From assembly GCA_031414595.1 (NCBI GenBank), contig JANNVX010000114.1:1-64000 (forward strand): DNA of 64,000 nt. The letters run 5' to 3'. A program made the position numbers and the translations under genes. Every line of letters begins with the position of its first letter. The first letter of the stretch is position 1. The notes under the pieces are model-generated. The model was given only the letters and a program-made list of their open reading frames with translations. It did not search any database and was not told where the DNA came from. Shown here piece after piece: positions 1 through 64,000 of the stretch. The stretch comes from Deinococcales bacterium. GTDB lineage: Bacteria > Deinococcota > Deinococci > Deinococcales > JAAFIG01.

Positions 1-141
1 TATCTTTGCTGATTTGGATGCTTTGGAAGATATTTTGTGTGACCGTTGTGCTTTTCTGATGCAGAATCCTGAACTGGTTCGTGGTCGGGCTGGTTTTAGC
101 TGGCTCGATGATTAAATACTATCTAAGTAAATTTGGTATCA
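1..141 (+). mobile_element. Right end of IS630-family insertion sequence
   Basis: Transposase tail followed by ...AAATTTGGTATCA terminus-like sequence, abutting a 5'-truncated gene. Confidence 0.6.
2..115 (+). CDS. 3' end of IS630-family transposase (partial, runs off window start)
   Basis: Frame 2 reads IFADLDALEDILCDRCAFLMQNPELVRGRAGFSWLDD*, resembling IS630 transposase C-termini. Confidence 0.7.
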   Translation: MFADLDALEDILCDRCAFLMQNPELVRGRAGFSWLDD

Positions 142-873
142 CATGGTTTTGAGCATTATTTTCCAGAATTGTACTTGTCACGCTGGCTCGAGTCGGTGGG
201 TGAACCAAGTTCGGTGTTTGCTTTTGAGCGCACTGGCGTTAAGCCTTTGCGTTATGCGTACAGCGTTCTGCTCGAGAAACTAGATATTGATGCCATTGTT
301 TTAATTGACGGTGGCACAGACAGTCTAATGCGAGGCGATGAAATTGGTTTGGGAACGCCAGAAGAGGATTCCCTGAGCATTGCTGCCGTTCACACCCTCG
401 AGACCACAGCCCAAAAATACTTACTCTGCCTTGGCTTTGGCATAGACGCTTATCATGGGGTTTGCCATGCCCATTTTCTCGAGGCGGTGGCAAAACTGAC
501 CATGCGTGGCGATTACCTTGGGGCTTGGAGTTTGACACCAGAAATGAATGCCGTTCAAAAGTATTTTCAAGCCGTGAAATTCTCGTCACTGAACATGCCA
601 AGTCATCCAAGCATTGTTTCTAATTCGGTTGTAGCGGCAGTCAAAGGTTACTTTGGTGATGTTCACAGTACCAAGCGCACCAGCAACAGCGAGTTATTTA
701 TCAACCCGCTTATGGGGTTGTACTGGGCTTTTCGGCTCGAAGGTGTGGCTGAGGAAAATTTGTATTTGGATTGGTTGCTCGAGACGACAACTTTTGCTGA
801 GGTTCGTGCCAACATCGAAAGCTACCGTGACACCGTGCCTAAAATGCGACTGTGGAAAGCTATTCCGCACTAA
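133..873 (+). pseudogene. DUF1152-family protein, N-terminally truncated by the IS
   Basis: YFPE..L.RWL, DGGTDSLMRGDE.GLGTP.ED and LGFGID motifs; N-terminal part absent; TTG start lies inside the IS end. Confidence 0.7.
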
Positions 874-1664
874 TTCTCGAGTAGAAATTGTTGCACAGCA
901 TCCTCGAGACTGATTTCTTTGGCATCTATGGCTTGTAGGTACTGCTGCAAAAACCTGACCAGAAAACCTCTGCCATGCACAAACTCGAGCCTGAGCAAAT
1001 GCCCCAATGCTCCAATTTCTTCAATGTAATCGTCGCTAAAATCCGCTAGTGCAGCCACAAAATCGTAATTCACAAATCTTGGCTCGAGACTCCAAACTTC
1101 ACGCTTGGTCAAAATTGCATATTGGGCTTCTAATCGTCCGCCAAGTGGTAAACCTGCCGACTCAAGGCTGTAGAGTGTGCGGTTATCCCAATTTTTTGTA
1201 AACCATTTGTGGTTGTGTCCTCGGACAATAAACCGTTCGGTTGTGTCTGCGAATATGGCGCGTAAGTCGGTATCACTTGAGTGGGCAAAAATACTCTCAG
1301 ATAGGCTTCTGGCTGTCGCGTGAGTGATGAGTAAATCTGGTCGAGATAAAGTTTTTGGTAGTTGGCGCATTATCTCGAGTTCGATTGCTGAAAACTGCGC
1401 TTGAGTCCAGCGCACACTTTGAAAACGTTCTTGCTCTAGTAGCAGATTTTGTCCAACCGAGTAAACATATTCTTCGTGATTACCTTGCAGTACAGGGCAA
1501 CCAAGTGCCATCACGGTTTCAAAACATCTTCTCGAGTGCGAGTGGATGTTGACTGTATCGCCAGCAATAATAATTTCATCCACAGCTTGGGTTTGTATGT
1601 CCTCGAGAATGGCTTCTAGTGCGTGGATATTACCGTGAATATCAGAAATTACTGCAATTCTCAT
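870..1664 (-). CDS. Metallophosphoesterase (calcineurin-like/YfcE-like)
   Basis: SDIHGN, GD, GNHE, GHNH motifs. Confidence 0.9.
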   Translation of the reverse strand: MRIAVISDIHGNIHALEAILEDIQTQAVDEIIIAGDTVNIHSHSRRCFETVMALGCPVLQGNHEEYVYSVGQNLLLEQERFQSVRWTQAQFSAIELEIMRQLPKTLSRPDLLITHATARSLSESIFAHSSDTDLRAIFADTTERFIVRGHNHKWFTKNWDNRTLYSLESAGLPLGGRLEAQYAILTKREVWSLEPRFVNYDFVAALADFSDDYIEEIGALGHLLRLEFVHGRGFLVRFLQQYLQAIDAKEISLEDAVQQFLLEN

Positions 1665-1930
1665 AGGAATTCTGACCGAATTTCTAATGCCGTTTGTGCT
1701 TTTATTCGTCCTTGCTTGCCTTCTGCTATTCCTTCGTTGATTCGTCGAACATTTTCGGATGAGTGCAAGATATACAGCGTTTCCTGCATTCGCTCGAGTT
1801 CATCGGCTGAAATCATAGCAACTCGCTCATGCTCATTACGCTTGATAATCACAACAACTGCATCGTCAAGTACCTTATCCATAACTTTTCCAAGATTTGC
1901 TCGGACATGGGCGTATGAATACTGAATCAT
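1661..1930 (-). CDS. Phd/YefM-family antitoxin
   Basis: YSYAHVRANLGKVMDKV...IIKR...ETLYILHSSENVRR; TATAAT 6 nt before ATG. Confidence 0.85.
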   Translation of the reverse strand: MIQYSYAHVRANLGKVMDKVLDDAVVVIIKRNEHERVAMISADELERMQETLYILHSSENVRRINEGIAEGKQGRIKAQTALEIRSEFL

Positions 1931-1948
1931 TCGTCAATTATAAGGCAA

Positions 1949-2290
1949 TCAACTGCCTCGGTAAGTGCTGTACGACCACGGCGACACCAAAAGCGGCACA
2001 TGATAATGGGCGGTAATGTCGGCAATTCCAAAACAAATTGGGATGGTCTCGAGAAAACGTGGTTCTGGTAATCCAAAATAAGCCCCAACTTCAAACACAA
2101 GTTCGTACTGCCCCACCTCGAGACTACCCCGTGCAATCAGAGGTTCATCGGTGCGCCCGTCGGCATTGGTAATGGTGCTTTTGAGGAGTTCACGTCTCCC
2201 CTGTTCACATTTATACAAACAAATTTGCACTCCAGAAGCGGGTTTGCCTTTGGCAGTATCAAGAACATGTGTTGTCAGTCCCGCATTCAT
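1949..2290 (-). CDS. uraH: 5-hydroxyisourate hydrolase
   Basis: [14 protein letters not shown] start and C-terminal [22 protein letters not shown] overlap with uricase. Confidence 0.95.
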
Positions 2291-3114
2291 GCGCGTTCTA
2301 CCCAACCTTCGATTAAGCCAAATGGTTCGGCATCGGCATGAAAAATCTGCCCGTTGTTCTGCATTCCAAAACGCTCCAAGTTATAGGGAATATGGTGCTT
2401 ATTGGGGAAACTAAAATGAATCTTCTCGAGTTCAGGACAAGCATTTAAGACCGCTTCACCCATTCGGTAGAGCGTATTCTGCACACTTGGGCTGTAATGG
2501 TCAGTAAAGGTGACTAGGATATTCTGCCAGACTTTATTCCAAACCGCGTCGTAATCCACATTTGGCGTGTTGTACAACCAATGCGCTGTCACAACTGTGG
2601 CAAGGATACGGTCATTCGTTTCTGGCAAGCTCGTAAATTGCTCAAACAAATACCCTTCCCAACCCGAATTGGTGGTTTTTAGGACAAACAATTCATCAAT
2701 TCCACTCGAGACGCTAAAATTTGTACCATCACCTTCGATTGTGGCGGTGTGCTTGCCTGTGTCACGCACAAAGCCATGCTCATGAATTCGATTCCAACGA
2801 TGCTCGAGCAGTTTGACGCGGACACTCGAGACTTTTGGTCCTGCGCTCATAAAATGCCTGATTAAGTGCTTGCCAAATTCTTCGATGCTCGAGATTAAGC
2901 CGTCCTTCGCCAGCGCATAAATTGTGTTTCGCACGGTGTCGGTTGCTAGCAAATCGGTGTTATCGCCAAGCACATGAGCCGCGTCAAAGTCGCCCTGCAT
3001 GGCAACATCTACCCAAATATCCTTAATTTCATGGCGGCTCGAATCCCTGAACACCTTGAACAAGCGCACATCGGATTTACCGTAATTGTTCTGACCGAGT
3101 TTAACTTTAATCAT
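2287..3114 (-). CDS. pucL: Factor-independent urate hydroxylase (uricase)
   Basis: [36 protein letters not shown] motifs; GGAG RBS. Confidence 0.95.
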
Positions 3115-9871: not shown

Positions 9872-11070
9872 GCTTGGTGTTCTGCACCCCAGACTGGAAA
9901 TGGGTCACGGTAAAATTCCCACTTTTCTGGTTCACACATTTCCGAATCGGTTAAAAGCGCTGCGTTCAACTGGCTCTCAATGAGTTCGCGGTTCATTTTT
10001 GCACCAATAAAAACAATTTCTTGGCGGCGGTCGCCGTATGGTTCTGCCCAAATATCCTCGAGATAACCCAAGAATTCTGGGTCGTCGGAACGCTGCGATT
10101 TATCCACCGCCGCCCACCAAAAACCCGCCATATCAAAACGCGCTACTCGCCCAGCTTGCGCCCACAAACCCGCGTACTCCATCCGACTGGCAAGCCAAAA
10201 ATGACCCTTGGAACGCACCACGCCAACAAAATTGCCTTGTAAAACCTTATGAAAACGCTCAGGGTGAAATGGTTTACGTGAGCGGTAGACAAAACTGCTG
10301 ATGCCGTACTCCTCGGTTTCTGGGGTGTGTTCACCTCGAACCTCACGCAACCAACCCGCGTTCTGGCTGGCTTGGTCAAAATCAAACAAACCTGTGCCAA
10401 GTACATTCTCAAGCGGTGTTTGACCAAAGCTCGAGTGAATGATTTTTGCCACGGGATTAAGGTGATGCAGAATTCCCTCGAGCCTCGAGATTTCCTCGGT
10501 AGTACAAAGGTCAGTTTTGTTTAGCAGCAGCACATTAGCAAATTCGACTTGTTCAACCAGTAAATCAGTCACGGTGCGCTCATCGCCTTCGCCAGCCGTT
10601 TCACCGCGTTCGCGCAAACTTTGGGCGGCATCCCAGTCGCGCAGCCAGTTATAACCATCCACAACCGTGACCATCGTGTCTAGCCGTGCAATGCTGTTCA
10701 GGCTTTGCCCATTTTCATCTTCAAAGGTGAAGGTTTCGGCAACGGGTAATGGTTCAGAGATACCCGTGGATTCGATAATCACATAATCAAAACGCCCTTC
10801 TTTGGCGAGTTTTCCGACCTCGAGCAGCAAGTCTTCACGCAGGGTACAACAGATACAGCCGTTGGATATTTCGATTAGTTTTTCTTCGGTGCGCGACAGG
10901 TGAGCTTCGTTCTGGACAATCTGCGCGTCTATATTGACCTCGGACATATCATTGACAATCACTGCTACGCGCTTGCCTTGGCGGTTAGCCAGAATATGGT
11001 TTAAGAGCGTGGTTTTGCCGCTGCCGAGAAAGCCAGATAAAACGGTCACGGGTAAAGGAGAAGTATTCAC
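9868..11070 (-). CDS. COG0523 zinc metallochaperone GTPase (ZigA/YciC-like)
   Basis: [28 protein letters not shown], CobW C-terminal domain. Confidence 0.95.
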
Positions 11071-12932: not shown

Positions 12933-14279
12933 ATGGAAGAACTCCACGGACGCATCCCACCTCATAACCTTGACGCTGAAGCCAGCGTGCTGGGCAGTAT
13001 TTTACTTGACAACGAGGCATACCACAGTCTAGAGGGTACGCTAAAACCCGACCAGTTTTACAAAGAAGCCAACCGTAAAATCTATGCTGCCATCGAGAAC
13101 CTGATTTCAAAAGGCAACCCTGCCGATTCGGTCACGCTCATCGAAGAACTCCGCACCAAAGACCAACTCGAGGAAGTCGGCGGGGTGGCATATCTGGTGG
13201 GCTTATCCGACGGTGTGCCAACCAGTGTCTACGCCAAGTTCTATGCCGATATTGTGGTTGAAAAAAGCAATTTACGCGGGTTGATTAACGCCTCTTCAAA
13301 AATCATGCAAATGGCTTATGACGAAGCCGCCCCTGCCGAAGAACTGATGGACAGAGCTGAAAAACTGGTCTTTGAGGTGGCACAAAAAAAGAGCCAGCAG
13401 CCATTTCAAAACATGAACACGCTGGTCAATGAAACCTTTGAGTACATTTCTAAAATCTCGAGCGACAGCAACTTTATCACCGGTGTCGCCACTGGTTTTA
13501 GAGATTTAGACGAAATGACCACAGGCTTACAACCGGGGTCGCTTAATGTCATTGCGGCACGCCCAAGTATGGGAAAAACTGCCTTTGCGCTTTCCATCGC
13601 CCAAAATATTTCGGTACGCCAAAATAAAGCCGTGGCAGTCTTTAGTCTCGAGATGCCCGCTTCACAGCTTGTGTTGCGAATGATGTGCGCCGAGGCTCGA
13701 GTAGACATGAACCGTGTGCGTCAAGGGGCGCTCAACGAAAAAGACTTTGAGCGTCTGGTCAATGCGGCGGGTAAACTAAGCGAAGCGCCAATGTTTATTG
13801 ATGATGCTTCGGATTTAACCGTCACCGAACTGCGAAGTAAATCGAGGCGCTTAATGGCAGAAAAAGATTTGCATTTAATTGTGATTGATTACATGCAGTT
13901 AATGTCGGGCAGTGGTACTTCCAAGGGTGGCGGCGAGAATCGGCAACAAGAAATTTCGACCATTTCACGTGGGCTAAAATCTTTAGCAAGGGAACTCAAT
14001 ATCCCTGTGGTGGTCTTAAGCCAACTCTCGAGACAAGTGGAGTCACGTCCTAATCACCGTCCGATGTTGTCAGATTTACGTGAATCAGGTGCGATTGAGC
14101 AGGACGCAGACCTTGTTTCTTTTATTTACCGCGATGAGTATTACCACAAAGATTCCGAAAAACAAGGCATTGCCGAAATTATTATTGGTAAGCAGCGCAA
14201 TGGTCCTGTCGGTACAGTCGAGTTGCAATTTCATTCGCAGCACGTTAGATTCAATGACCTCGCCAAAGATGGCGTTTAG
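12933..14279 (+). CDS. dnaB: Replicative DNA helicase
   Basis: PPHNLDAE, AARPSMGKT, IDYMQL, LSQLSR, DLRESGAIEQDAD, KQRNGP. Confidence 0.98.
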   Translation: MEELHGRIPPHNLDAEASVLGSILLDNEAYHSLEGTLKPDQFYKEANRKIYAAIENLISKGNPADSVTLIEELRTKDQLEEVGGVAYLVGLSDGVPTSVYAKFYADIVVEKSNLRGLINASSKIMQMAYDEAAPAEELMDRAEKLVFEVAQKKSQQPFQNMNTLVNETFEYISKISSDSNFITGVATGFRDLDEMTTGLQPGSLNVIAARPSMGKTAFALSIAQNISVRQNKAVAVFSLEMPASQLVLRMMCAEARVDMNRVRQGALNEKDFERLVNAAGKLSEAPMFIDDASDLTVTELRSKSRRLMAEKDLHLIVIDYMQLMSGSGTSKGGGENRQQEISTISRGLKSLARELNIPVVVLSQLSRQVESRPNHRPMLSDLRESGAIEQDADLVSFIYRDEYYHKDSEKQGIAEIIIGKQRNGPVGTVELQFHSQHVRFNDLAKDGV

Positions 14280-14360: not shown

Positions 14361-15068
14361 ATGGGGCGCATGACCAGTAGATCAATTTCTTTTAAGACCA
14401 CTTCTGTGACACGAATCTCGAGCTATGGACAAGTGCTTTCTTGTCCTGTCTGCGAGCGTACCCTCATGCTTAAAGACATCCGCGATGGCGACCAAGCCTA
14501 CTGGTGTCATACCTGCGAACGTGGCTGGCGAGCGGGGCATCTACCACCCGAAGCCAGACGCGCCAAAGCCAAGGCGCTGCTCGAAGAAAGCCTAGAAGTT
14601 ATGCCTATTCCCGAGCCAGAAGTGGTTATTCCCCAACTTGAAGTAGTTGCACCAGTCAAAAAACCACGGGCTTCTAAAGCTGTACCTATTATTCTCGAGC
14701 CTAAAATTACCGAACCACAAAGCAAGTCTAAACCAGTCAGCGCACCGTTAAAACCAGTGCTTCTCGAGCCAGAAGTGAGCCTCAAAACCAAAGTCACTCG
14801 AGTCGCAAAAGTCAAAACCACACCAGAAGCGGTTGTCCTCGAAACACCACCCGTGATTGTGGCAGCCCCCAGAAAACCCCGAACACCCAAAGCTGTTGTT
14901 CCTGTAACGCCTAAAGCCATTGTACCAGTGGTTTTAACACAACCAGAACCAGCCATCCCAGAAGTGAAAAAACAAAAATCTCGAGCCAGCCCTCGAACTG
15001 TCAAACATACAAATACTGTGGTTCAACAAGATTTATTCGCCTACCTAATCCAGCACGGCTCGAGCTAG
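14361..15068 (+). CDS. Hypothetical protein: N-terminal zinc ribbon plus Pro/Lys/Val-rich tail
   Basis: CPVC...WCHTC then low-complexity region; start may be 14370. Confidence 0.7.
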   Translation: MGRMTSRSISFKTTSVTRISSYGQVLSCPVCERTLMLKDIRDGDQAYWCHTCERGWRAGHLPPEARRAKAKALLEESLEVMPIPEPEVVIPQLEVVAPVKKPRASKAVPIILEPKITEPQSKSKPVSAPLKPVLLEPEVSLKTKVTRVAKVKTTPEAVVLETPPVIVAAPRKPRTPKAVVPVTPKAIVPVVLTQPEPAIPEVKKQKSRASPRTVKHTNTVVQQDLFAYLIQHGSS

Positions 15069-16250
15069 GCGCTTCATGCCTTCTTGTATTTGCTCTACAC
15101 TTGGGGTGGCAAAACTGAGGCGCAAATAATTACTGCGTTTTGCATCTGGGAAAAAACCTGCTCCAGGAACAAAAATAATGCCATTTTCTACAGCTTTTTG
15201 TACCATGCTCATGGTATCTACACCTTCTGCCATTTTGACCCAAATAAACATACCGCCGCTTGGGGCGTTAAACTCGAGCATTCCACTTGGGAAGGTTTTA
15301 GCAATGGCTTCCATCATCGCATTGCCTTTTGCGCCGTATGTACTGCGGATTTTTGGTAATTGTGTCTCGAGCCGTCCAGTCTCGAGGTAGGCGGCGGCGA
15401 CATATTGCGCGAAACTCGAGGAATGCAGGTCAGCGGCTTGCTTAACGATGGTCAGCGGTTGAATCAGTCCAGCAGGCGCAAGCATCCAGCCTAAGCGCAG
15501 TCCGGGCGCAACAAATTTAGACAAGGTACTCATGTAAATAATCTGTTCACTCGAGCCGGGTACTTCGTTTGTCAGGGCATAAATCGGTGGGACGCTCTCC
15601 CCAGCAAAACGCAGTTCGCTGTACGGGTCGTCTTCGACAATGAGAATTTGTTCTCGAGTTGCAATCTCGAGCAGTTTTTTACGGCGCTCTAAACTGAGTG
15701 TTGCCCCGCTCGGATTGCCAAAAGTAGCCACGGTATAAATAAATTTGGGGCGTTTGCCAGCCTGTTTGCACTCGAGAATAGCGCGTTCTAAATCCTCGAT
15801 TTGAATACCGTCGGCATCTTGTTCGATACCGTGCAGTTGGGCTTGGTACAATTCAAAAACTTGCACTGCCGCCAAATACGCTGGGCGTTCGACCAACACG
15901 ACATCGTCTGGGTCAAGCATGATTTTAGAGACCAAATCAATTCCTTGTTGTGAACCTGTAGTGACGAGCATCTGATCCAAATTCAGCCCATGCACCCCAC
16001 GATTTGCCATGACCCGTTCAATTTGTTGCTTAAAACCAATGTACCCGTCGGTTGGACCATACTGCAAAGCCGCACTGCTGTGGGTGGATAAAGCCAGTTC
16101 AGTGGCGGTTTTTATCCCTTCGACATCAAATAAACTTGGGTCGGGAAGTCCGCCAGCAAAAGAAATGATATCTTTGCGGTTTGCCACCTTGAGGATTTCT
16201 CGGACAAATGAGGGTTTGGCGAATTCCATTCGGCTTGATAGCGGATACAT
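15045..16250 (-). CDS. PLP-dependent class I/II aminotransferase (LysN-like)
   Basis: SFAGGLP, GSQQ, NPSG, EDDPY, SKFVAPGLRLG; TATACT 6 nt before ATG 16250. Confidence 0.92.
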   Translation of the reverse strand: MYPLSSRMEFAKPSFVREILKVANRKDIISFAGGLPDPSLFDVEGIKTATELALSTHSSAALQYGPTDGYIGFKQQIERVMANRGVHGLNLDQMLVTTGSQQGIDLVSKIMLDPDDVVLVERPAYLAAVQVFELYQAQLHGIEQDADGIQIEDLERAILECKQAGKRPKFIYTVATFGNPSGATLSLERRKKLLEIATREQILIVEDDPYSELRFAGESVPPIYALTNEVPGSSEQIIYMSTLSKFVAPGLRLGWMLAPAGLIQPLTIVKQAADLHSSSFAQYVAAAYLETGRLETQLPKIRSTYGAKGNAMMEAIAKTFPSGMLEFNAPSGGMFIWVKMAEGVDTMSMVQKAVENGIIFVPGAGFFPDAKRSNYLRLSFATPSVEQIQEGMKRLARAVLD

Positions 16251-16299
16251 ACCCAAAGTATACGCTTTTTGGGTGCTAGATGCCAGAAGTGTCAAGTGT

Positions 16300-16587
16300 T
16301 TATTCCACAGTTCTTGGTACTTTGAAAAAACCATCTTCGGCTTCTATTGCCACTGCCAAGGCTTGATGCTGCTCGAGTCCAGCGATTGCAAGGTCTTCGC
16401 GCATGATGTTTTTCATTGGGACTGGGCGCGGCATTTCCGGGTAAGCACTTAAATCAAGATTTTGTAGGGTTTGAAAACTGGCTAAGATATTGTTGATGTC
16501 CTTGGCTGCCGCAACTGTTTCTTCGGCGCTCATCTCGAGCCGAGCTAGTTTTTTTAGGTGTTCCATTTCGGTAGGCGTGACAGTCAT
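16300..16587 (-). CDS. gatC: Asp/Glu-tRNA amidotransferase subunit C
   Basis: HL.KLARL, NIMRED, DGFFKVPR. Confidence 0.9.
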   Translation of the reverse strand: MTVTPTEMEHLKKLARLEMSAEETVAAAKDINNILASFQTLQNLDLSAYPEMPRPVPMKNIMREDLAIAGLEQHQALAVAIEAEDGFFKVPRTVE

Positions 16588-16596
16588 ACCCAGAGT

Positions 16597-18009
16597 TTAC
16601 CCGTTGGTGGCTTCCTGCATCAATGCCCACAAGTGCGCTACATCTTCGCGGCTCGTCTCGAGTGCGCCAATCGAAACCCTGACCATCCAGCGCCCCTCGA
16701 GAATAGCTGGTGTTAAATAAGCACTGCCGCTCGAGTTGATTTGGTTCACCCACGCTAAAGTGTGCTGGTCAAGCGCTTCCCCCTCGAGTCCGTCTGGTTC
16801 GTGGCGGATGCACAGGGTTTGTAAACGCACAGGATTGAGTACCGTCCAATTTGGTGTATTTTTGATTTCTCCCTCGAGCCAAGTGGCATTTTCAAGGTCA
16901 CGGCGTAAGCGGGCTTGGAGTTTTGTTATGCCCTCGAGCCGTAGTAAAAACCATAGTTTTAAGGCTCGCATTCGTCGCCCAAGTGGAATACCCCAATCGC
17001 GGTATTGTTTAACTTGTCCATCGGTACTGGTTTGCAAGTAACTTGGGTTGGTACTCATCACCCGTACCAGATGTTCAGGGTCTGCCACATAATAAAGCGA
17101 GCAATCAAAAGTAGCACCAAGCCATTTATGTGGGTTTAAGCATAACGAATCTGCGCCCTCGAGTCCAGCGAATAATTCTTGTTTTTCGGGCAGAATCATG
17201 GCGCTACCTGCCATCGCTGCATCCACATGTAGCCAAAGCCCGTAATCTTTGGCAATCTTGGCAATCTCGGGCAATGGGTCGCAAGCTGTGGTGGTTGTGC
17301 CACCAACCGTGGCAACTATCGCGCAGGGTTTTTTACCCAGCTTTATGTCCTCGAGAATCATTTTTTCAAGCTTACTGGGGATTAAATCAAAGTTCTTATC
17401 CACTGGTACGATTCGCAGATTGTCCTTGCCAAATCCTGCCAATAAGCCGCCTTTTTCAACACTCGAGTGGCACTGCGAAGAAAAATAAATCATTTGGGCT
17501 TGCGGTTCAGACTGCAAGCCACCCCGTGCCAAAGCGTAATTGGTACTGCGTTCCCTTGCCGAAATCAGGGCGACCATCGTGGCGGTGCTGGCGGTGTCTT
17601 GAATCACGCCTTTCATCTGGCTTGGGATGTTTGAGGCTACCTGCATCCATTCAAGCATTCGCTCCTCGAGTTCGGTCAAGGCTGGACTAGCTGCCCAATT
17701 TAGCCCGAGTTGCCCCAGTCCGCTCGAGACCAAATCGCCAAGGACAGCTTCTAAGCTCGAGTTAGCTGGGAAGTAGCCGTAAAACATCGGGTGTTGCCAA
17801 TTGGAGATGTGTGGCAGAATTAGCGTCTCGAGGTCGTGCAGCAGGGCTTGTGGGCTATCTGGGCTATTTGGTGCGGTGCTTGGAAGTTTCTCGAGAACTG
17901 CGTTAGGTTGGCTGTTGCTCCAAACACGGCGGTCACGGATACCAGCACGATAATCGGCAATCCAGTCAATCAAGGTGTGTCCAAAAGCTCTGAATTCATT
18001 GGGGGTCAT
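16597..18009 (-). CDS. Group II PLP-dependent (aromatic L-amino acid-like) decarboxylase
   Basis: WQHP.FYGYFP, HSSVEK, WLHVDAA.AG, NPHKW, LGRR.RALKLW. Confidence 0.92.
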   Translation of the reverse strand: MTPNEFRAFGHTLIDWIADYRAGIRDRRVWSNSQPNAVLEKLPSTAPNSPDSPQALLHDLETLILPHISNWQHPMFYGYFPANSSLEAVLGDLVSSGLGQLGLNWAASPALTELEERMLEWMQVASNIPSQMKGVIQDTASTATMVALISARERSTNYALARGGLQSEPQAQMIYFSSQCHSSVEKGGLLAGFGKDNLRIVPVDKNFDLIPSKLEKMILEDIKLGKKPCAIVATVGGTTTTACDPLPEIAKIAKDYGLWLHVDAAMAGSAMILPEKQELFAGLEGADSLCLNPHKWLGATFDCSLYYVADPEHLVRVMSTNPSYLQTSTDGQVKQYRDWGIPLGRRMRALKLWFLLRLEGITKLQARLRRDLENATWLEGEIKNTPNWTVLNPVRLQTLCIRHEPDGLEGEALDQHTLAWVNQINSSGSAYLTPAILEGRWMVRVSIGALETSREDVAHLWALMQEATNG

Positions 18010-19896: not shown

Positions 19897-22800
19897 TTAT
19901 CCCATCACAACCCGAACATGGTGTGACAATCCATCTTTTAATAAATCAATACTCGAGTGCATTACGCCGTCAATCTCGATGGACTTCACCCCTTTTGATA
20001 CACCATTTGGGTTTTCGACTTTGATGGTGTACACAGAATTATGGTACTTAAAAGTAATCTGATACTCTGCCCAATTCGTGGGAATACACGGGTCTAGCTC
20101 GAGCCGATTGCCACGCAACTTAAAACCCAGAATTGACTCGAGTCCAGCGCGGTAGAGCCAGCCACTCGAGCCAGTGTACCAAGTCCAACCACCACGCCCG
20201 ATGTGTGGGTTTTTGGCATAAACATCGGCGGAAAGGACATACGGTTCGACTTTATATTGGTTGACTTTGGCAAGGTTACTGCTGTGAGAAATTGGGTTCA
20301 GTAAATCAAATAAAGCTGCTGATTTATTGCCCTTGCCAAGCATCGCAAACGCCACAATTGACCAAATAGCAGCGTGGGTGTACTGCCCACCATTTTCACG
20401 CACACCCGGCACATAGCCTTTAATATACCCGGGGTCAAGGGTTGTGTTTTCAAATGGCGGCGTAAACAGTAAAATCAGTTGGTCAGCACGTTTAATCAGG
20501 TGCTGCTCGAGCGAATTCATGGCTTGGGTGGCTCGAGAGTTTTCGGCTGCCCCTGAAATAACCGCCCAAGTCTGGGCAATCGAATCTATTTGGCATTCAT
20601 CATTTTGGCTTGAACCGAGTGCTGTGCCATCATCAAAAAAGGCACGTTTGTACCATTGTCCATCCCAGCCGTGGGTCTCGAGGGCTTGCTGTAAGGTTTG
20701 GGCGTGGTTGTGCCAGATTTGCGCCCGTTCGGGTTCTTGGCGAGTTAAAGCAAGTTTTGCCCATGCAATTAAGTTGGTATACAAAAACCAGCCCAACCAA
20801 ACACTTTCGCCTTTTCCGTGCTGACCAACGCGGTTCATACCATCGTTCCAGTCGCCTGAACCAATCAGGGGCAAGCCGTGAATGCCAACCGCAAGGCTTT
20901 TATCAAGCGCTCGAGCACCATGTTCAAACAACGAGGCAGACAATGCCGAAACATTCGGGGTGAAGTAGGCATCTTCTTGGTCTGGCTCGAGCAGTATTCC
21001 TTCTATAAAGGCAACCGGTTCATCTAACACTTCAGCATCACCTGAAATCTCGAGATAGTGGCTAATCGCATATGGCAACCAAATCAAGTCATCCGAGATT
21101 CTGGTTCGCACCCCGCGTCCAACTGGCGGATGCCACCAATGTTGGACATCGCCCTCAAGAAATTGTCGGCTGGCAGATAATAAAATCTGCTTTCTTGCCA
21201 GTTCGGGTTTGATACTTGCCATTGCCATGGTGTCTTGGAGTTGGTCACGGAAACCATATGCACCACCCGCTTGGTAAAAACCTGTACGCGCCAGAATTCT
21301 CGAGGAGAGTGTTTGGTATGGCAACCAACGATTAAGCATGATGTCCATCGCTCGGTTTGGGGTTTGGACTTGGATGGTGGTTAGGGTTTGATGCCAATGG
21401 TTTTTTGTTGATTCGAGAATTTGATTTATATCGGTGTTGCGGTAAAATTTGATCAGGTCTTGGGCTTGGGTTACTGATTCGGTTTGCCCGAGTAAAAAAA
21501 TCACTTCAATTTTTGCACCAGCCGCTAATTCAAGGGTGGTTTGCATCGCGGCGCACGAATCAAACCCAGCCCCGATTTTGCCACTGAGTTTGGTTTTGCT
21601 TTGCAGTGAAGCAGGCGACTCGAGCTTGCCATACTGTCCAATAAATTCTAAACGGTCACAGGTAAAACGGGCATCTTTACCCGCTTGCCACTGCACAATT
21701 AAATCGGTAAAAGCTACTTTTTTGCTGTTTTCAGAGTTCCAATGGTTACGGGCAAAAATCGCTTTGGTCAGAGGGTCTTGTTCGGTGATAATATACGCCG
21801 ATTTATTTGCGCCTAGTACCCACTCGAGGTAGGCAGTCACAGATAATTTACGGGTTTTACCAGAGCGGTTTTCAATGCTTAAACGCGAGATTTTTACAGG
21901 GTCGTCAGCCGCCACAAATTGGCTTAGCTCGAGTTGTAAACCATGTGTGGCATGGCTAAAATGGCTATAACCTTGTCCGTGACAAATGGTGTATGGGCTG
22001 GATTCCCGAATCGGGGATGGGGTAGCCGTAAATAAAGCCAAAGTCTCTTCATCACGGATGTAAAGAATTTCTGAAATTGGGTCGGTCACGGGGTCGTTAG
22101 ACCAAGGGGTGAGTTTATTTTCACGGCTGTTTTCTGCCCATGTATAACCAGCCCCCGATTCGGAGACTGTAAAACCTAGTTTTTGGTTGGCAATCACGTT
22201 AATCCACGGGGCTGGGGTGGACTGTCCAGCCTCTAAAAAGATTTGGTACTCGAGTCCGTTGTGGGCAAAACCACCTAAGCCATTAAAAAACTCGAGGTTA
22301 GGACGGTTTAGTGTTAAAGGTGGATTATGTTTTGCAAGACTGGTTGGCGGTTTTTGTGGCAGCACTGATCGGATGGTGCGGCTGCGAATCACTTGTTCGG
22401 TCAGCGTGCCTTGTTGACTGAGCAGCATGGCTCGAGCCGTGCTTTGCAGTAAATCCTGTTCGGCACTTAAAAGTAAATCGGCACGCAGCGTAAAAACACG
22501 CCCTTGGCTTTGGTCTTCGGTTTGCGGGCTGGTAGAACGCAACAAATGCACAATTGCTTCTTGCAGTTCCAGTTTATACGAGGTCGGCTGTTGGTTGAGG
22601 ATAACCACATCCACCTTTAAGCATTTGCTGCGCCAGTATTCGTGCGCTCGCAGGATTTGACGGACAATCTCGAGGTCGGCAAGGTCGTTTATTCGCAGTA
22701 GCAGCATCGGTAAATCGCCCGAGATACCATGCCGCCATAAACCAGACTGTCCAAGGGTGTTGCGTTCTAAGACAGCACTCGAGGCTTGCATTTCGGGGCT

Positions 22801-38059: not shown

Positions 38060-38548
38060 ATGAAACTGACTTTTACTGCAATTCTTGCTTGGCTATCGGG
38101 CAGTGGTTTCTTGGTAGCACTGGCGGCTGGTTTTGGTATTCTAGGCGGGGCTAGTGGATATACTGCTTATTATGCAGGTGCAACCAGTTACTTGTCGAGC
38201 GACCCGAAAGCCTGTGTCAATTGTCATATCATGCGCGAAGTCTACGATTCATGGGCAAAAGCACCGCATCATAACGTGGCGGTTTGTACCGATTGTCATT
38301 TACCCCATGATTTTATTGGCAAATGGCTTGCCAAAGCCGAAAATGGCTGGAATCACTCAAAGGCATTTACCTTACAAAATTTCCATGAACCAATCCGAAT
38401 TAACAAAAAGAACCTAGAAATTCTCGAGCATAACTGCAAATCTTGTCATGCCGACACAGTGCATCAAATGGTATCCGAAGTCAAACAAGACAACAGCTTA
38501 GGTTGCTTGCATTGTCATGCTGATGTTGGGCATGGACCACAACGATAA
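38060..38548 (+). CDS. nrfH: Cytochrome c nitrite reductase small subunit (tetraheme)
   Basis: N-terminal TM, SYLSSDPKACVNCHIM, four CxxCH. Confidence 0.93.
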   Translation: MKLTFTAILAWLSGSGFLVALAAGFGILGGASGYTAYYAGATSYLSSDPKACVNCHIMREVYDSWAKAPHHNVAVCTDCHLPHDFIGKWLAKAENGWNHSKAFTLQNFHEPIRINKKNLEILEHNCKSCHADTVHQMVSEVKQDNSLGCLHCHADVGHGPQR

Positions 38549-38557
38549 GGAGCAAAA

Positions 38558-39964
38558 ATGGCAAAGATTCGAGGTCCGGTACTGACTGCCAGTGTGTTCT
38601 TAGCTGGCGCACTTGTGACTGTTGGCGTATTAGCACTGTACACCAATATCGTGCAGCGCAAAGCTGAGGAAAAACAACACGTTTTCCAAGTTGTGGAAAT
38701 TACTGAAGACACCATAGACCCTGCCGAATGGGGCAAGAATTACCCCAAGCAATATGATAGTTACAAACGCACTGTGGATACCGAACGCACCCGTTATGGT
38801 GGTTCGGAAAACTTTCAAAAACTTGATTCCGACCCGTTCCTACGCACCATCTTTGCAGGTTACGCCTTTGGCATAGATTTCAGGGAAGAACGCGGTCATG
38901 CCTTTATGCTCGACGACCAACGCGAAACCAAACGAGTCACCGAACGCAAACAACCCGGCGCGTGCCTAAATTGCCATGCCAGTGTACTGACCGCCTTTCG
39001 GGAAACTGGTGTCAAAGCAGGAGTACCAAACGACGAAGACCACCGTTGGGAAGCCGTAGCCAAAGGCTTTACATTGGTCAATAAACTCACGTACTCGGCT
39101 GCTACAGCCCTTGTGACCCACCCTGTTTCATGTGTGGACTGCCATAACCCAACCGACATGGCTGTGCGTGTGACCCGACCAGCCTTTATGAATGGAATCC
39201 AAGCTCTTGCCAAATCAAACGACCCACTGCCTAATTTCCCCAGCATCGAACGCTGGCGCAAAACCAATCAAGCCGTGCCGTATGACCCAAACAAAGAAGC
39301 CTCACGCCAAGAACTGCGAAGCATGGTCTGCACCCAATGCCATGTCGAGTATTACATCACCAAAGAAGACAAACAACTGACCTTCCCGTGGCAGAACGGA
39401 CTTAAGCTCGAGCAAATCGAAAAGTATTACGACGATGTGGGTTGGAAAGACTGGGAACACAAAATTTCTAAAGCCCCAGTGTTAAAAGCCCAACACCCAG
39501 AAATGGAACTCTGGTCACAAGGCATTCATGCTCGAAGCGGCGTAGCCTGCGCCGACTGCCATATGCCCTATCAGCGCCAAGGCGCAATTAAAGTCTCGAG
39601 CCACCATGTTCGTAGTCCGATGTTAAACGTGGCACAAGCCTGCCAGACTTGCCACCGGTACGACGAAACAGAAATCAAAGCTCGAGTCGAAGTTATTCAA
39701 GACCGCACTCAGAAATTATTGACCCAATCAGAATCGGCAGTTGTGGACTTGATCAATGCCATTGCAACCGCCATGAAAGCCAAAAAAACCGACTCACAAC
39801 TTAAAACTGCCCGCGATTTCCAACGCAAAGCCCAATTCCGAGCCGATTTTATCAATGCCGAGAACAGCATGGGATTCCATGCACCCCAAGAAGCTGCACG
39901 CTTACTAGCCGAGAGTATTAATTTTGCGCGGCTTGGACAACTCGAGGTTGCAAAACTAAAGTAA
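38558..39964 (+). CDS. nrfA: Ammonia-forming cytochrome c552 nitrite reductase (pentaheme)
   Basis: AGYAF..DF.EERGH, CTQCHVEYY, KAQHPE, CADCHMPY, ENSMGFHAP; five CxxCH. Confidence 0.93.
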   Translation: MAKIRGPVLTASVFLAGALVTVGVLALYTNIVQRKAEEKQHVFQVVEITEDTIDPAEWGKNYPKQYDSYKRTVDTERTRYGGSENFQKLDSDPFLRTIFAGYAFGIDFREERGHAFMLDDQRETKRVTERKQPGACLNCHASVLTAFRETGVKAGVPNDEDHRWEAVAKGFTLVNKLTYSAATALVTHPVSCVDCHNPTDMAVRVTRPAFMNGIQALAKSNDPLPNFPSIERWRKTNQAVPYDPNKEASRQELRSMVCTQCHVEYYITKEDKQLTFPWQNGLKLEQIEKYYDDVGWKDWEHKISKAPVLKAQHPEMELWSQGIHARSGVACADCHMPYQRQGAIKVSSHHVRSPMLNVAQACQTCHRYDETEIKARVEVIQDRTQKLLTQSESAVVDLINAIATAMKAKKTDSQLKTARDFQRKAQFRADFINAENSMGFHAPQEAARLLAESINFARLGQLEVAKLK

Positions 39965-45022: not shown

Positions 45023-46852
45023 TTATTCGTGGGCGAGTTCCCCAAGTTCTGGTGAACGCCATAGCGCACTGAGCATTAACTCGCGGATAAAAATAAATTC
45101 TTTGGGCAATCTATCGTAGAGTTTGATAAATAATTCGTCGTGCGAGGCAATTTCTTGTTGCCATAATTCGCGGTCAATACTGATTAACTGCTCGAATTGG
45201 GTTTTGGTCATGTCCAGACCGCGCCAATCCATGTCCTCATAGCGGGGAACCCAACCAAGGACACTTTCGACGCTAGTGGCATGACCTCTGGCACGTTCGA
45301 CAATCCATTTGAGGACGCGCATATTTTCGCTAAAACCATGCCATAAGTAGTTGCCGGCTGCGTCTTTGCGAAACCAATTGACATTAAAAATTCTTGGTGG
45401 GTTGGGTAATTCCCTGCCAAGTTGCACCCAATGATTAAAGTAATCACCCATGTGATAACCACAAAAAGGTAGCATCGCAAATGGATCGCGGCGGACTGCC
45501 CCTGTTGCACCAACTGCCGCCGCCGTAGTTTCGCTACCCATTGTAGCAGCCGCATAAACACCATAAGTCCAATTAAAACTCTGGTAAACCAGTGGTACAA
45601 CCTTCGAGCGTCTGCCACCAAAGATAAAGGCAGAAATTGGTACGCCATCTGGGTCGTTATAAGCTGGGTCAATGACTGGGCATTGGGCTATCGGCGCGGT
45701 AAATCTCGAGTTAGGATGGGCGGCTTTGCGTCCACAATCAGGGGTCCAGTCTTGTCCTGTCCAGTCTATTAAATGCGCGGGTGGTGTGGCGCTCATACCT
45801 TCCCACCAAACATCGAGGTCGTCGGTCAGGGCAACATTGGTAAAAATCGTATTCTCGAGAATGCTGTTCATGGCGTTGGGATTAGATTCAAAATTTGTGC
45901 CTGGAGCAACCCCAAAAAAACCTGCTTCTGGGTTGATGGCTCGGAGTTGCCCGTGGCTGTCTGCTTTTATCCAAGCAATGTCATCTCCAACTGTACTGAT
46001 TTCCCAACCATCATCGGTAAAAGGTTTTGGTGGTATCAGCATCGCAAAATTGGTTTTACCACAAGCACTTGGAAAGGCTGCCGCCACATAGGTTTTTTCG
46101 CCGTTCGGGTCTTTAACACCAAGAATCAGCATATGTTCGGCTAACCAATTTTGTTCTTTTGCCAGCACACTAGCGATTCTTAGGGCAAAACACTTTTTAC
46201 CAAGCAAGGCGTTGCCACCGTAACCAGAACCATAACTCCAGATACTGCGTTCCTCGGGGAAATGAACGATGTACTTGTCAAAGTTACATGCCCAGCTACT
46301 GTCTTTTTGTCCAAACTCGAGCGGTGCGCCAAGGCTGTGTAAGCAATGCACAAAATCGTTGTTCCCCAATGCTTCGAGTACCGCTTGTCCCATGCGCGTC
46401 ATAATTCGCATATTGACCGCCACATATGGCGAATCGGATAATTCTACGCCAATGTGCGAAATTGAACTGCCAATCGGACCCATGCTGAACGGAATCACAT
46501 ACATCACCCGTCCGCGCATTGAACCCGCAAATAAGCCTTGCAACTTGGTTTTCATGGCTTTGGGTTCAAACCAATTGTTCATCGGACCCGCGTCGGATTT
46601 ACTTCTCGAGCAAATATAAGTGCGGTCTTCGACCCGTGCCACATCGGTCACTGCGGAACGTGCCAAAAAACTATTCAGGCGCTTATCGGGGTTAAGCCGT
46701 ATAAACGTACCACTTTGCACCATTTGTTCACAGAGCTTGTCGTATTCTTCTTGTGAGCCATCGCACCAATGAATGCTGTCTGGCTGGCATAATGCCGCGA
46801 CTTCTGCGACCCAACGTTGTAACTCGAGGTTGCTTGTGAATTCTTTTGTCAT
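45023..46852 (-). CDS. pckG: Phosphoenolpyruvate carboxykinase (GTP)
   Basis: [52 protein letters not shown]. Confidence 0.97.
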
Positions 46853-61874: not shown

Positions 61875-62450
61875 ATGATGATTCCAATAGTAAAAAGTCC
61901 GCGCCTCGAGATTCCTGAACCCCGTATTAGCCGTTTTTTATTTGCCGATACACGACTAGCGCCACTTTGGACAATACTGCGCTTGTATCTTGGCTATGAA
62001 TGGCTGACGGCTGGCTGGGGCAAGCTGACCAATCCAGCCGGAGTTTGGGTTGGCGACAAAGCTGGCGCGGCAATTACTGGTTTTTTGAATGGCGCACTTA
62101 AAAAAACAGATGGTGACCACCCAGATGTCCAAGGTTTTTATGCCTGGTTTATCAGCAATGTTGCCTTACCCAATGCCACGCTTTTTAGTTACTTGGTGAC
62201 GTTTGGCGAAATAATCGTTGGGGTTGCGCTTATCTTGGGTTTATTTACGGGATTAGCCGCTTTTTTTGGTGGCTTTATGAACAGCAACTTTTTACTGGCT
62301 GGAACAGTCTCGAGTAACCCAGTCTTGTTTATCTTAGCCACATTTATTGTCTTGGCATGGCGCACCTCGGGGTATTGGGGTTTAGACCGCTTTGTTTTGC
62401 CAGCCGTAGGTATACGGGCGGTGTTCAGCCCGAATTCAGATAACAAATAG
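61875..62450 (+). CDS. DoxX-family membrane protein
   Basis: RLYLGYEWL.AG..K, GE..VG.ALILG, N..FLLAG.VS.NP, G.D. Confidence 0.88.
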   Translation: MMIPIVKSPRLEIPEPRISRFLFADTRLAPLWTILRLYLGYEWLTAGWGKLTNPAGVWVGDKAGAAITGFLNGALKKTDGDHPDVQGFYAWFISNVALPNATLFSYLVTFGEIIVGVALILGLFTGLAAFFGGFMNSNFLLAGTVSSNPVLFILATFIVLAWRTSGYWGLDRFVLPAVGIRAVFSPNSDNK

Positions 62451-62483
62451 CCCATCTAAAGCTGCCTGTTTTAACTTGGTGCT

Positions 62484-62822
62484 ATGAAAATAAGTTTGAT
62501 TATTGCGGCGTTTATCCTGACCCTGATAACAATAGCCACGGTTGCCATTGCTATTTTCTCGAGTCCTTTACCACAACCTTTGCAAGTCTATAGGTGCAGG
62601 GCAAATCAAGTTTTATTGGTGCGAGTTTCCAACACTTCGGTGCAGATAGGACAAGCCAGACGTTCGCATTCACTGACTTGGGTGACGGTTAATCGGGCAG
62701 CCAATAAAAAATTTGAATGGCTGGTCAATGGTAAAACCGCACAATTACGCAGAATCTCAAATCGTTCGGTGGTGGTTAGTCAGTGCAATGCCACAAAACA
62801 AGATGAACCCTTCAGGAGTTGA
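62484..62822 (+). CDS. Hypothetical exported protein
   Basis: N-terminal TM, two Cys. Confidence 0.5.
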   Translation: MKISLIIAAFILTLITIATVAIAIFSSPLPQPLQVYRCRANQVLLVRVSNTSVQIGQARRSHSLTWVTVNRAANKKFEWLVNGKTAQLRRISNRSVVVSQCNATKQDEPFRS

Positions 62823-62824
62823 TT

Positions 62825-63034
62825 ATGAAAACAAAACGCGAATCTCGAGTACCGACTTTAACCCCCAAAGAAGTACCCGCTTTAACCCCCAAAGAAGCTG
62901 AGGTATTGCACGAAGCCTTACAACCCCAAGATGCTCCAACCCCCAAAGGAAGTAAGCACCTTGGGGCAAAAGAAGAACAGGTCAGTCCTCTATCCAGTCC
63001 CGAAATCGCGGACAGTGACGCACCCGGCGGCTAA
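62825..63034 (+). CDS. Small hypothetical protein with 24-bp tandem repeat (LTPKE x2)
   Basis: AGGAG RBS; tttaacccccaaagaag twice. Confidence 0.55.
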   Translation: MKTKRESRVPTLTPKEVPALTPKEAEVLHEALQPQDAPTPKGSKHLGAKEEQVSPLSSPEIADSDAPGG

Positions 63035-63035
63035 G

Positions 63036-63062
63036 TTCAGTTTCGCTTCAGTTTGGGTTCAG
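63036..63062 (+). promoter_or_regulatory. Three TTCAG repeats at 11-bp period
   Basis: TTCAG-tttcgc-TTCAG-tttggg-TTCAG. Confidence 0.72.
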
Positions 63063-63096
63063 TAAACTTGTGGTTTTTAACTGCCATACTGTACAC

Positions 63097-64000
63097 ATGA
63101 AGCATCAGCCTGTTAAAACCCGTTTTGCCAATTGGCTTGACCGCTCGAGTTTAGGTATAAAACTCAATGTTTTGGTGTTTCTGATTTTTTTTCCTCCCTT
63201 TGCTTTTACGATTGTTTTTGTCTGGATTACCACCCAATTGCAACAAAATGCCTTTAAGACAACTCAGTACCGCGAAGTTATTTTTGCTTTGAACGACTTA
63301 AATGTTAGTTTGCTAAACATCGAAACTGGGATTCATGGTTATATTTTAACCAACAACCAAGAATTTCTTGAACCTTATGAAAATGGTCTTAAAGCCACCC
63401 AAAAGGCGTTGGCTGAATTAGAAAGTAGTCTGGTACTTAGCCTCCAAGCTCAGATTTTAGGCTATGAAATTCAGATTTATCAAAGTTGGATTAAAACCCA
63501 ATTACAACAAAAAAGGTTTTTGAATCTAAAAACTCAAGATGCTGTTTTGTTAGAAAGTAAACGAAGATTTGATCGTTTGAGTCAGTCCTTTGCCCAAACC
63601 AAAACAGCCAGCTTAGAATTATTTGAAGGGAGTCGAACCAAGACTTTAGCGGATATAGGATTTTTAGGTTGGTTTCCGTGGTTACTCTTTATTTTACTGC
63701 TTTTGGGTAATTTGTTATGGCGCTGGGGAGTCCAAAAATTTGTACTTTTTCCCTTAAAAGTCATTGCTGGCACTGTCCAAACCCAAGTTGTAGATTCAAA
63801 ACCTCGTATTTCCTCGAAAAGTCAAGATGAAATTGGGCAACTGAGGAACAGCTTAAATATGTCCTATGAGGCTTTGCAGACTCGGACTCGAGATTTAGAG
63901 CTTTCTAATATCAATCTTGAAATTGGCAGGAAACAACTCGAGTTGAATTCAGAATTAGCCGTTAGTGCGGCTCGAATGGTGGCTTGGGATTGGAAGATTC
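63097..64000 (+). CDS. CHASE3-HAMP-PAS sensor protein (partial; output domain beyond window)
   Basis: TM, LLNIETGIHGYILT...FLEPY, TM, DEIGQL, then AARMVAWDW; open to window end; absent from ORF track. Confidence 0.8.
   Translation, partial: MKHQPVKTRFANWLDRSSLGIKLNVLVFLIFFPPFAFTIVFVWITTQLQQNAFKTTQYREVIFALNDLNVSLLNIETGIHGYILTNNQEFLEPYENGLKATQKALAELESSLVLSLQAQILGYEIQIYQSWIKTQLQQKRFLNLKTQDAVLLESKRRFDRLSQSFAQTKTASLELFEGSRTKTLADIGFLGWFPWLLFILLLLGNLLWRWGVQKFVLFPLKVIAGTVQTQVVDSKPRISSKSQDEIGQLRNSLNMSYEALQTRTRDLELSNINLEIGRKQLELNSELAVSAARMVAWDWKI

Follow-up and report, generated by a model that had tools for sequence, protein, structure and literature searches.

CTCGAG, a hyper-abundant palindrome in the resident DNA of an uncultured Deinococcales family

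Hyper-abundant palindromes have been a puzzle of cyanobacterial genomes for thirty years. A stretch of 64,000 nucleotides from a Deinococcales bacterium (hereafter the window, which is positions 1 to 64,000 of contig JANNVX010000114.1, C114, of assembly GCA_031414595.1) raises the question of whether the hexamer CTCGAG is a motif of this kind in another phylum and, if so, what keeps it there. A sequence-only reading of the window had described CTCGAG as a highly iterated palindrome (HIP) resembling HIP1 of cyanobacteria, and its hand counts of 20 sites in positions 1-3000 and 25 in positions 15001-18000 proved exact when compared with the listed positions. As a description the likeness also holds, since CTCGAG is a palindrome, 24-fold over-represented, present in all codon phases as well as in intergenic DNA, and conserved beyond background. 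The hyper-abundance of CTCGAG is real, and the palindrome is a mark of resident DNA throughout an uncultured Deinococcales family. No published report of CTCGAG enrichment was found in a full-text literature search on iterated palindromes, over-representation, Deinococcus, Meiothermus, Thermaceae and methylomes.

The window holds 324 copies of CTCGAG (5.06 per kb), which fall in genes and between them as follows:

Positions 1..64000, whole window: 324 sites, 179 read as CTC-GAG, 51 as xCT-CGA-Gxx and 68 as xxC-TCG-AGx, with 26 in intergenic DNA or at gene edges; the 8-mer palindrome CCTCGAGG, considered below, has 0 copies.

Shuffles of the window that preserve its dinucleotides gave a mean of 7.09 copies and a largest count of 20, and 0 of 100 shuffles reached 324. 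The whole genome (G000, an assembly of 4.49 Mb in 120 contigs with 47% GC) contains 23,235 copies, that is 5.2 per kb or one per ~190 bases, and every large contig carries 4-6 per kb. CTCGAG is the most frequent hexamer of the genome, three times as frequent as the runners-up, which are its own overlapping neighbours. The Markov models proposed by the sequence-only reading indicate an observed/expected ratio (O/E) of 23.9, 43.5 and 18.1 under orders 0, 1 and 2, respectively, so that the palindrome is over-represented genome-wide by at least one order of magnitude, as HIPs are. The ratios under order 3 (3.8) and order 4 (1.16) are both contaminated by the subwords of CTCGAG, which dominate those expectations, and were set aside as uninformative.

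This excess is not explained by the choice of codons. Genes were called by our own crude procedure based on open reading frames (3991 genes, 88% coding), and synonymous codons were permuted within each gene in 20 shuffles. Coding DNA contains 20,470 CTCGAG against 1995 in the shuffles (highest of the 20, 2089), and the excess is found in the phases CTC GAG (12,256 observed, 1,328 shuffled), xCT CGA Gxx (3,971 and 402) and xxC TCG AGx (4,243 and 265), all three lying 9-16 times above the synonymous-codon shuffles. Between genes there are 2,800 sites, or 5.36 per kb, where 97 (0.19 per kb) would be expected. The motif is thus present in all frames and between genes beyond codon use, again as in HIPs, and the earlier suggestion that codon bias alone is insufficient was borne out, with neither a loss of the enrichment under shuffling nor its confinement to a single frame. 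The consequences reach the proteins. No dipeptide of the proteome exceeds its expectation as much as Leu-Glu (20,482 pairs where 9,218 are expected, O/E 2.22), and 12,256 of these 20,482 pairs (60%) are written CTC-GAG; outside the motif, CTC accounts for only 7.9% of Leu codons and GAG for only 19.9% of Glu codons. Met-Glu (O/E 0.53) and Val-Glu (O/E 0.72) are depleted. A word of DNA therefore measurably distorts a proteome, by ~11,000 surplus Leu-Glu pairs.

The unit of this enrichment is the hexamer, since the flanks of CTCGAG are close to random. All one-letter variants are much rarer than CTCGAG itself (O/E 0.17-1.23 against 23.9), the three transitions giving 1.07-1.23 and the six transversions 0.17-0.70, so that each of the six positions is held. 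A drive of the Vsr type, in which deamination repair acts on one position, is thereby excluded as sole cause. The only exception among the flanks is the 8-mer palindrome CCTCGAGG, which is depleted about fourfold with respect to the flank marginals (356 copies in the genome, both strands, against ~1,400 from marginal flank frequencies) and makes up 18 of the 1,614 sites in other genomes of the family, from all five genera, and 0 of the 324 in the window.

Around this exception, one-sided C or G flanks are just mildly low and the remaining three palindromic 8-mers stand at 0.72-0.90; the avoidance of CCTCGAGG is family-wide. Other palindromes are strongly avoided in the genome, such as GGCC (152 copies against 13,951 expected) and GATC (O/E 0.14), while GGCGCC (3 copies), TGCGCA (2), CGATCG (3), GTGCAC (6) and GAGCTC (6) are nearly missing, and 39 of the 64 palindromic hexamers have an O/E of 0.3 or less. 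GGCC is avoided in genera g1 and g26 and not in g24, g25 and g27, so that its avoidance is lineage-specific, unlike the CTCGAG excess.

The survey of Deinococcota suggested together with the original description indicates that the trait extends over the family and not over the phylum. For the GTP-PEPCK encoded in the window, the closest public relatives are those of four Deinococcales bacterium metagenome-assembled genomes (MAGs), with 76-92% identity, whose loci carry 4.9-5.7 CTCGAG per kb. The GTDB family of G000 comprises 19 genomes in five genera, with GC contents of 46-63% (MAGs 57-94% complete), and the relatives were sampled over 1.7-20 kb each. All 18 other genomes of the family show 4.1-9.2 CTCGAG per kb, always as the top palindromic hexamer. 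In each of the five genera the three codon phases are enriched (of 15 comparisons of genus and phase, 11 lie 6-17 times over shuffles and the remaining four about 4-5 times), and so is intergenic DNA, at 7-9 sites per kb. The trait holds across the family despite this range of GC and differing patterns of restriction avoidance. Outside the family, 22 genomes were sampled, for which the labels Deinococcus-like and Thermus-like are inferred:

Family f2, genus g2, 8 genomes, Deinococcus-like: CTCGAG depleted, with 12 coding sites against 41 shuffled and 2 intergenic sites against 8.8 expected.
Family f3, genus g3, 4 genomes, Thermus-like: not enriched, 60 sites against 101.
Family f3, genus g4, 2 genomes: mild, real enrichment, with 61, 14 and 10 sites by phase against 16.8, 0.7 and 1.8.
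Family f3, genera g6-g7; family f4, genus g8; family f5, genus g9: weaker signs of enrichment.

The trait thus reaches its extreme in one family and is faint in some neighbours, while the Deinococcus-like genomes show the reverse, and there the opposite sign of the bias may reflect restriction of the XhoI type. Three of the Deinococcus-like genomes have 0 sites in 20 kb (family f2, loci L104 and L126-L132). A third g4 genome owed its higher score entirely to a CRISPR array with CTCGAG in the repeat (G053, L133:55-3089).

Comparison of orthologs, also proposed in the sequence-only reading, indicates that CTCGAG sites are kept two to three times better than other hexamers, in alignable regions that favour conserved genes and among genomes that are kin, whose counts are not independent. 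Within the genus, where 52.8 kb of orthologous DNA from five genomes was aligned at 84% identity, 76% of the sites (211 of 278) are conserved, while other hexamers of matching codon phase reach 41%; for intergenic DNA the figures are 22 of 32 sites against a background of 47%. Across genera, at about 70-72% identity, 53%, 38% and 29% of sites are conserved against 16%, 13% and 11% of other hexamers. Conservation above background between related genomes is another feature of HIPs that CTCGAG shares. Individual sites give a view of their ages. In dnaB, 16 positions have CTCGAG in at least one of the 15 alignable family genomes; one of them is universal, several are limited to one genus or subclade, and one occurs in a single genome of the 15, where Leu-Glu replaces Val-Ala (GTN GCN in the other 14). 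Three sites of the window are useful in this respect:

Positions 13647..13652, dnaB site at nucleotide 714 of the gene: present in 15 of 15 alignable family genomes.
Positions 13167..13172, dnaB site at nucleotide 234: present in 6 of 6 genomes of genus g1, clade-restricted.
Positions 45705..45710, site at nucleotide 1211 of the GTP-PEPCK gene (minus-strand gene), coding Asn-Ser-Arg: compared with homologues.

The first of these sites is, to judge from its distribution, old and maintained. At the second, other genera carry ATCGAT, ATCGAC, ATAGAT, CTTGAT or CTGGAC. At the third, Asn-Ala-Arg is the sequence in 70 of the 76 homologues from other families, whereas Asn-Ser-Arg is found here and in the four family relatives (4/4), so that the PEPCK protein was altered to accommodate CTCGAG. 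Where the motif encodes a peptide, agreement with outgroups outside the family is only 16% (PEPCK) and 23% (SucC), against 51% and 47%, respectively, for dipeptides in general. Sites are thus preserved between genomes and yet new ones arise, sometimes at the cost of amino-acid changes. A rough balance leads in the same direction: the genome has 23,235 motif sites and 11,992 sites one letter away from the motif, a ratio of 1.9 where equal rates would give about 1/18, that is ~35 times the neutral ratio; as loss is slowed merely ~3-fold, gains must be boosted, although this rough balance only points to a boosted gain and is not a direct measurement of it. Of 38 sites unique to one genome (flank identity of at least 0.85), 12 involve changes of at least three letters, against ~7% in controls. 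This excess of multi-letter changes was considered as a discriminator of mechanisms and rejected, as it would result equally from synonymous changes among the six codons each of Leu, Arg and Ser or from decay after loss.

The dnaB gene itself is uninterrupted in the window (448 aa; 12933-14279), while in many family relatives (L086, L091, L096-L103) its open frame is 860-910 aa long and the matches are split, a pattern that an intein insertion would produce.

The distribution of sites along the genome, whose analysis had also been suggested, is slightly more even than random, with gaps under 20 bases scarce. The mean gap between sites is 191 bases; gaps below 20 bases occur at 0.4-0.6 of the geometric expectation, whereas those of 50-200 bases are in excess, and so are those above 1.5 kb (42 against ~9). 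No two sites lie 6 apart anywhere in the genome, a spacing that creates the rare word GAGCTC. In windows of 250 and 500 bp, site counts have a variance-to-mean ratio of 0.84 and 0.89, respectively, and eight control words reached at least 1.03 in 1,000-bp windows. At short range, the distribution of CTCGAG sites is thus a little more regular than chance would give. A periodic distribution at the scale of 10-90 kb is a feature of the HIP class. Two intervals mark the extremes in the window:

Positions 10477..10489: closest pair of sites, 7 bases apart.
Positions 38429..39406: longest site-free stretch, a 984-base gap lying mostly inside a gene for an NrfA-like cytochrome c nitrite reductase.

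Across the genome, site-free stretches longer than 1.4 kb are mostly islands of low GC (31-41%), and a few of the long ones lie in genes of normal GC, long or short. The density of sites rises with the GC decile of the gene, from 2.9 per kb in the lowest to 6.4 in the highest, and is flat around start and stop codons. In 68 tRNA genes predicted by aragorn there are 7 sites in 5.3 kb, against 27 at the genome density; the 23S rRNA was not found in the G000 assembly. Recently acquired DNA of low GC lacks CTCGAG, and the force acts on resident DNA. Even spacing together with depletion in recently acquired DNA is what uptake sequences show, and both are seen here (ratios of 0.84-0.89; low-GC gaps). 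A tight cluster of tRNA genes (G000:C56:144-2945) holds 5 of the 7 motif-bearing tRNAs of the genome.

In short, a force that operates at the DNA level, on the whole hexamer and throughout the family preserves and creates CTCGAG sites, in resident DNA only and towards even coverage. As to its nature, the account that we tentatively favour, with slightly less than even confidence, is that CTCGAG is a 'self DNA' tag read as a whole hexamer and kept by a DNA-level drive through uptake, recombination or repair of kin DNA. A putative protein would read the entire hexamer, and DNA bearing the motif would gain an advantage in some DNA transaction, most likely the uptake or recombination of kin DNA, similarly to uptake sequences, or the processing and repair of ends, similarly to a Chi site that works in both directions. 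Because of this advantage, changes that create the motif would spread and those that destroy it would be removed, until about one site per 200 bases was reached, and CTCGAG would then act as a tag of 'self'. A conserved methylation enzyme does not seem to be required. In a narrower version, which is possible but somewhat unlikely, kin and foreign DNA would be discriminated independently of methylation by a conserved protein that reads the bare hexamer in uptake, recombination or break repair, with a barcode every ~190 bases and no dedicated methylase; if true, this would be a methylation-independent system of self-recognition strong enough to reshape a proteome in which Leu-Glu is the top dipeptide.

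Several known systems offer parallels to such a tag. The DNA uptake sequences of Neisseria and the uptake signal sequences of Pasteurellaceae are, like CTCGAG, lineage-specific, chromosome-wide and located in coding regions at a cost to proteins, as well as rarer in acquired islands and more even than chance; they differ in being non-palindromic words of 9-12 nt found about once per kb, with a measured uptake bias in their hosts. The methylated RAATTY of Campylobacter jejuni is a short, symmetric word of six letters for kin DNA, as proposed for CTCGAG, although that system depends on an orphan methylase (CtsM) and no conserved methylase was found in the CTCGAG family. Another parallel is HIP1 (GCGATCGC), which according to Xu (2018) is likewise a palindrome, 15-300 times over-represented, genic and intergenic, conserved beyond background and with no gene-level role. 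HIP1 differs in its eight letters, its density of roughly 1 per kb and its cyanobacterial hosts, CTCGAG having six letters, 5 copies per kb (~5 times denser) and hosts in another phylum; moreover, HIP1 has the methylases DmtA and DmtC, whereas the CTCGAG family has no conserved cognate methylase in the families searched. HIP1 is reported to raise transformation in Synechococcus, for which the authors propose uptake and Chi-like roles, and its abundance correlates with proteins assigned to the type IV secretion system, for which an uptake-sequence role was put forward by the authors; earlier work argued for selection and nucleoid structure (Xu 2018), while Elhai (2015) proposed methyl-directed repair.

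On the other hand, a number of points weigh against a self-DNA tag. G000 has matches to the competence genes ComEC (PF03772) and DprA (PF02481), but both are near-universal, so that their presence merely fails to refute uptake, and no reader protein was identified in the analysis. Conservation and directional gain of sites fit a biased gene conversion free of function equally well. The evenness of the sites is modest, and the short-range deficit is due in part to avoided words such as GAGCTC. With 9-12 nt, known uptake sequences exceed CTCGAG in length, and they are no palindromes; Chi sites are oriented with respect to the strand. Finally, the effect of HIP1 on transformation is reported to be largely dependent on methylation, whereas no conserved methylase was found here.

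The possibility that the motif is a by-product of a molecular drive without benefit, in which heteroduplex or mismatch repair or gene conversion favours the strand with the intact CTCGAG, is unlikely in our estimation. It agrees well with an intergenic enrichment that equals or exceeds the coding one in all five genera, with the lower enrichment of highly constrained genes and of tRNAs (7 sites in 5.3 kb), with the lack of CTCGAG in newly acquired DNA, and with the boosted gain that would follow from a balance ~35 times the neutral ratio and a loss slowed ~3-fold. However, spacing below the Poisson variance is not expected from a purely mutational drive, and no enzyme with such a bias was found here; we know of none with a repair bias of the CTCGAG type, over six positions. 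A precedent is the very-short-patch repair of Vsr and Dcm in Escherichia coli, also a DNA-level bias that raises the count of a methylase target word (CCWGG), but Vsr-type repair acts on one position with a modest excess and cannot hold six, whereas in CTCGAG six positions are held and there is neither a Vsr match (no PF03852 in the 94%-complete genome) nor a universal C5 methylase. Besides, for HIP1, Xu et al. argued that positional conservation favours selection over replenishment, and the same conservation is seen here.

A system linked to methylation, as inferred in the sequence-only reading by analogy with HIP1, would involve a methyltransferase specific for CTCGAG or TCGA that marks the sites, which methyl-directed repair or methyl-dependent uptake would then create or maintain. 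This account is also unlikely, no more and no less than the former, in spite of precedents: according to Elhai (2015), every alternate HIP of cyanobacteria, GGCGCC included, has a methylase to match; the boost of transformation by HIP1 is reported to depend on methylation; and CTCGAG methylation has been described, in a preprint on hot-spring MAGs, in the class Fimbriimonadia and also in a host-phage 'Group 2' (10.64898/2026.06.24.734251). The alternate HIPs, such as GGCGCC in Calothrix PCC 7103, are indeed similar to CTCGAG in being hexamer palindromes and outliers of over-representation in a single lineage (Elhai 2015), but each has a methylase of matching specificity, while CTCGAG has none common to a family of five genera.

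The genome is not poor in such enzymes. G000 has ~25 DNA methyltransferase genes (9 matching PF01555, 5 PF00145 and 10 PF02384, with several PF07669 matches), and in two of the enzymes, encoded on contigs C4 and C89, an N6-methyladenine (m6A) methylase domain of the Eco57I type is joined to a specificity domain of the TaqI type. One of the two belongs to the following arrangement:

L081:4799-7530 (G000:C4): candidate type II restriction-modification pair, a 663-aa protein with a helix-turn-helix and a gamma-class m6A methylase with TaqI_C domain, overlapping a 246-aa gene.

The 246-aa protein belongs to no known family and has 4005 relatives, which share ~70% identity even between phyla, a level that would suit a mobile restriction gene, and among the matches listed these relatives bear no label beyond 'hypothetical protein'; no plasmid match was obtained, and the label 'restriction endonuclease subunit' in the Atlas is merely automatic. 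For the specificity of the C4 methylase, Pfam, NCBIfam and the PDB yielded generic matches to gamma-class m6A methylases and nothing more specific. In any case, these enzymes are not shared by the family. The C4 enzyme with its 246-aa neighbour occurs in 3 of the 19 family genomes, the C89 enzyme in 4, and a type-ISP-like enzyme in 9, with ~30% identity between genera. There are 0 PF00145 matches in G151 (91% complete) and 0 PF01555 matches in the single-contig G168, and the sets of PF02384 and PF07669 vary from genome to genome. Although 18 of 19 genomes have PF02086, the copies are no orthologs, those of G000 and G168 sharing 26% identity. In G000, the best counterparts of the G168 and G151 methylases show only 28-59% identity, compared with 67-93% for the genes next to them; a C5 enzyme of G153 attains 75%, but G151 is without any C5 enzyme. 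No orthologous methylase was therefore found across the 19 family genomes (MAGs 57-94% complete) in PF00145, PF01555, PF02384, PF07669 and PF02086, and a matching methylase wherever the motif is abundant, typical of HIPs, is not observed in these five Pfam families, whose specificities are not readable from sequence. The proposed association with a CTCGAG or TCGA methyltransferase is thus unsupported by gene content, although a methylase family that went unrecognised, or genes missing from incomplete MAGs, may hide an enzyme; the uptake-related or chromosome-organising roles that the sequence-only reading also named may still apply.

The repair side of such a system does not fare better. Repair of the Vsr type is not in evidence, with no Vsr, C5 methylases that are not universal and six constrained positions. 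A gene of the MutH/Sau3AI family does follow a D12-class (Dam-type) methylase (L146:4905-6481; G000:C1:27108-28231), but only in G000 and G154 (2 of 19), and its place beside a Dam-type methylase, together with the strong avoidance of GATC in G000, fits GATC rather than CTCGAG; the pair is probably a GATC restriction system. Nor does CTCGAG behave as the target of an XhoI-type restriction enzyme, since it is enriched, not avoided; the XhoI family PF04555 had no match in the genome, in a search whose control likewise matched nothing and which therefore says little about its absence.

A palindromic mark similar to Chi, at which a helicase-nuclease would halt from either side, so that after breaks caused by desiccation or radiation the cell's own fragments would be spared and foreign DNA degraded, is very unlikely. 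The dense, even and orientation-free coverage of resident DNA, its absence from foreign islands, and the general repute of the order for break repair all agree with it, but known Chi sites, which RecBCD or AddAB recognise, are asymmetric, skewed between strands and only mildly over-represented, whereas a palindrome cannot be strand-oriented, and the Deinococcus-like genomes, those of the classic specialists in break repair, are depleted in CTCGAG. A Chi-like role has been proposed for HIP1 in a preprint. The last explanation, a codon or dipeptide bias or else a trace of some high-GC ancestor that normally wrote Leu-Glu as CTC-GAG, has some basis in high-GC controls, where CTCGAG reaches 4-6 times the base-composition expectation and codon use fully accounts for it (phase 0, 134 sites against 111 shuffled in Sorangium and 81 against 62 in Gemmatimonadota, neither with an intergenic excess), but it is refuted by the 5-9 sites per kb of family intergenic DNA, where ~0.2-0.3 would be expected, by the other two codon phases (8-17 fold up in four genera, and ~10-fold, 14 against 1.6, in the single g24 locus), by the rarity of CTC and GAG as codons outside the motif, and by the existence of new, clade-restricted sites.

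Whatever the nature of the drive, the CTCGAG family is an independent and even denser case of a hyper-abundant palindrome in another phylum. Its sharp phylogenetic boundary, its milder neighbours, the depletion in Deinococcus-like genomes and the lack of a shared methylase are useful properties, which make it a second system where the function of such motifs can be tested, one in which the motif is separable from methylation and where a reader gene could be sought through phylogenetic profiling. In practical terms, cloning based on XhoI, binning by oligonucleotide composition and codon models are affected in these MAGs.

Some minor observations complete the picture. A scan of IMG/VR for triple sites gave at least 120 loci, and some of the matches listed have 3-7 CTCGAG per kb, mostly at a GC of 64-70%; viral contigs such as L223, L263, L271 and L186, among others, include some with 5-7 per kb at a GC of 64-69%, with L267 (0.42) and L168 (0.58) at a lower GC. 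When 10 IMG/VR loci were compared with G000 by tblastx, 8 gave no match and 2 weak protein-level matches, and no phages of the lineage were identified among them. Two CRISPR arrays of G000 also have CTCGAG in their repeats (G000:C101:43-1634 and G000:C82:70753-71697). The window has been found in public runs as metagenome contigs, from freshwater sediment and other sources, with no RNA dataset among those listed, and its gene content is ordinary, housekeeping and accessory, with SucC, DnaB, PEPCK, an NrfA-type nitrite reductase and a P-type ATPase. One further gene of the window was noted:

Positions 19897-28359, minus strand: protein of 2820 aa similar to cyclic beta-1,2-glucan synthases, with GH94 and glucoamylase-like domains; 49 CTCGAG.

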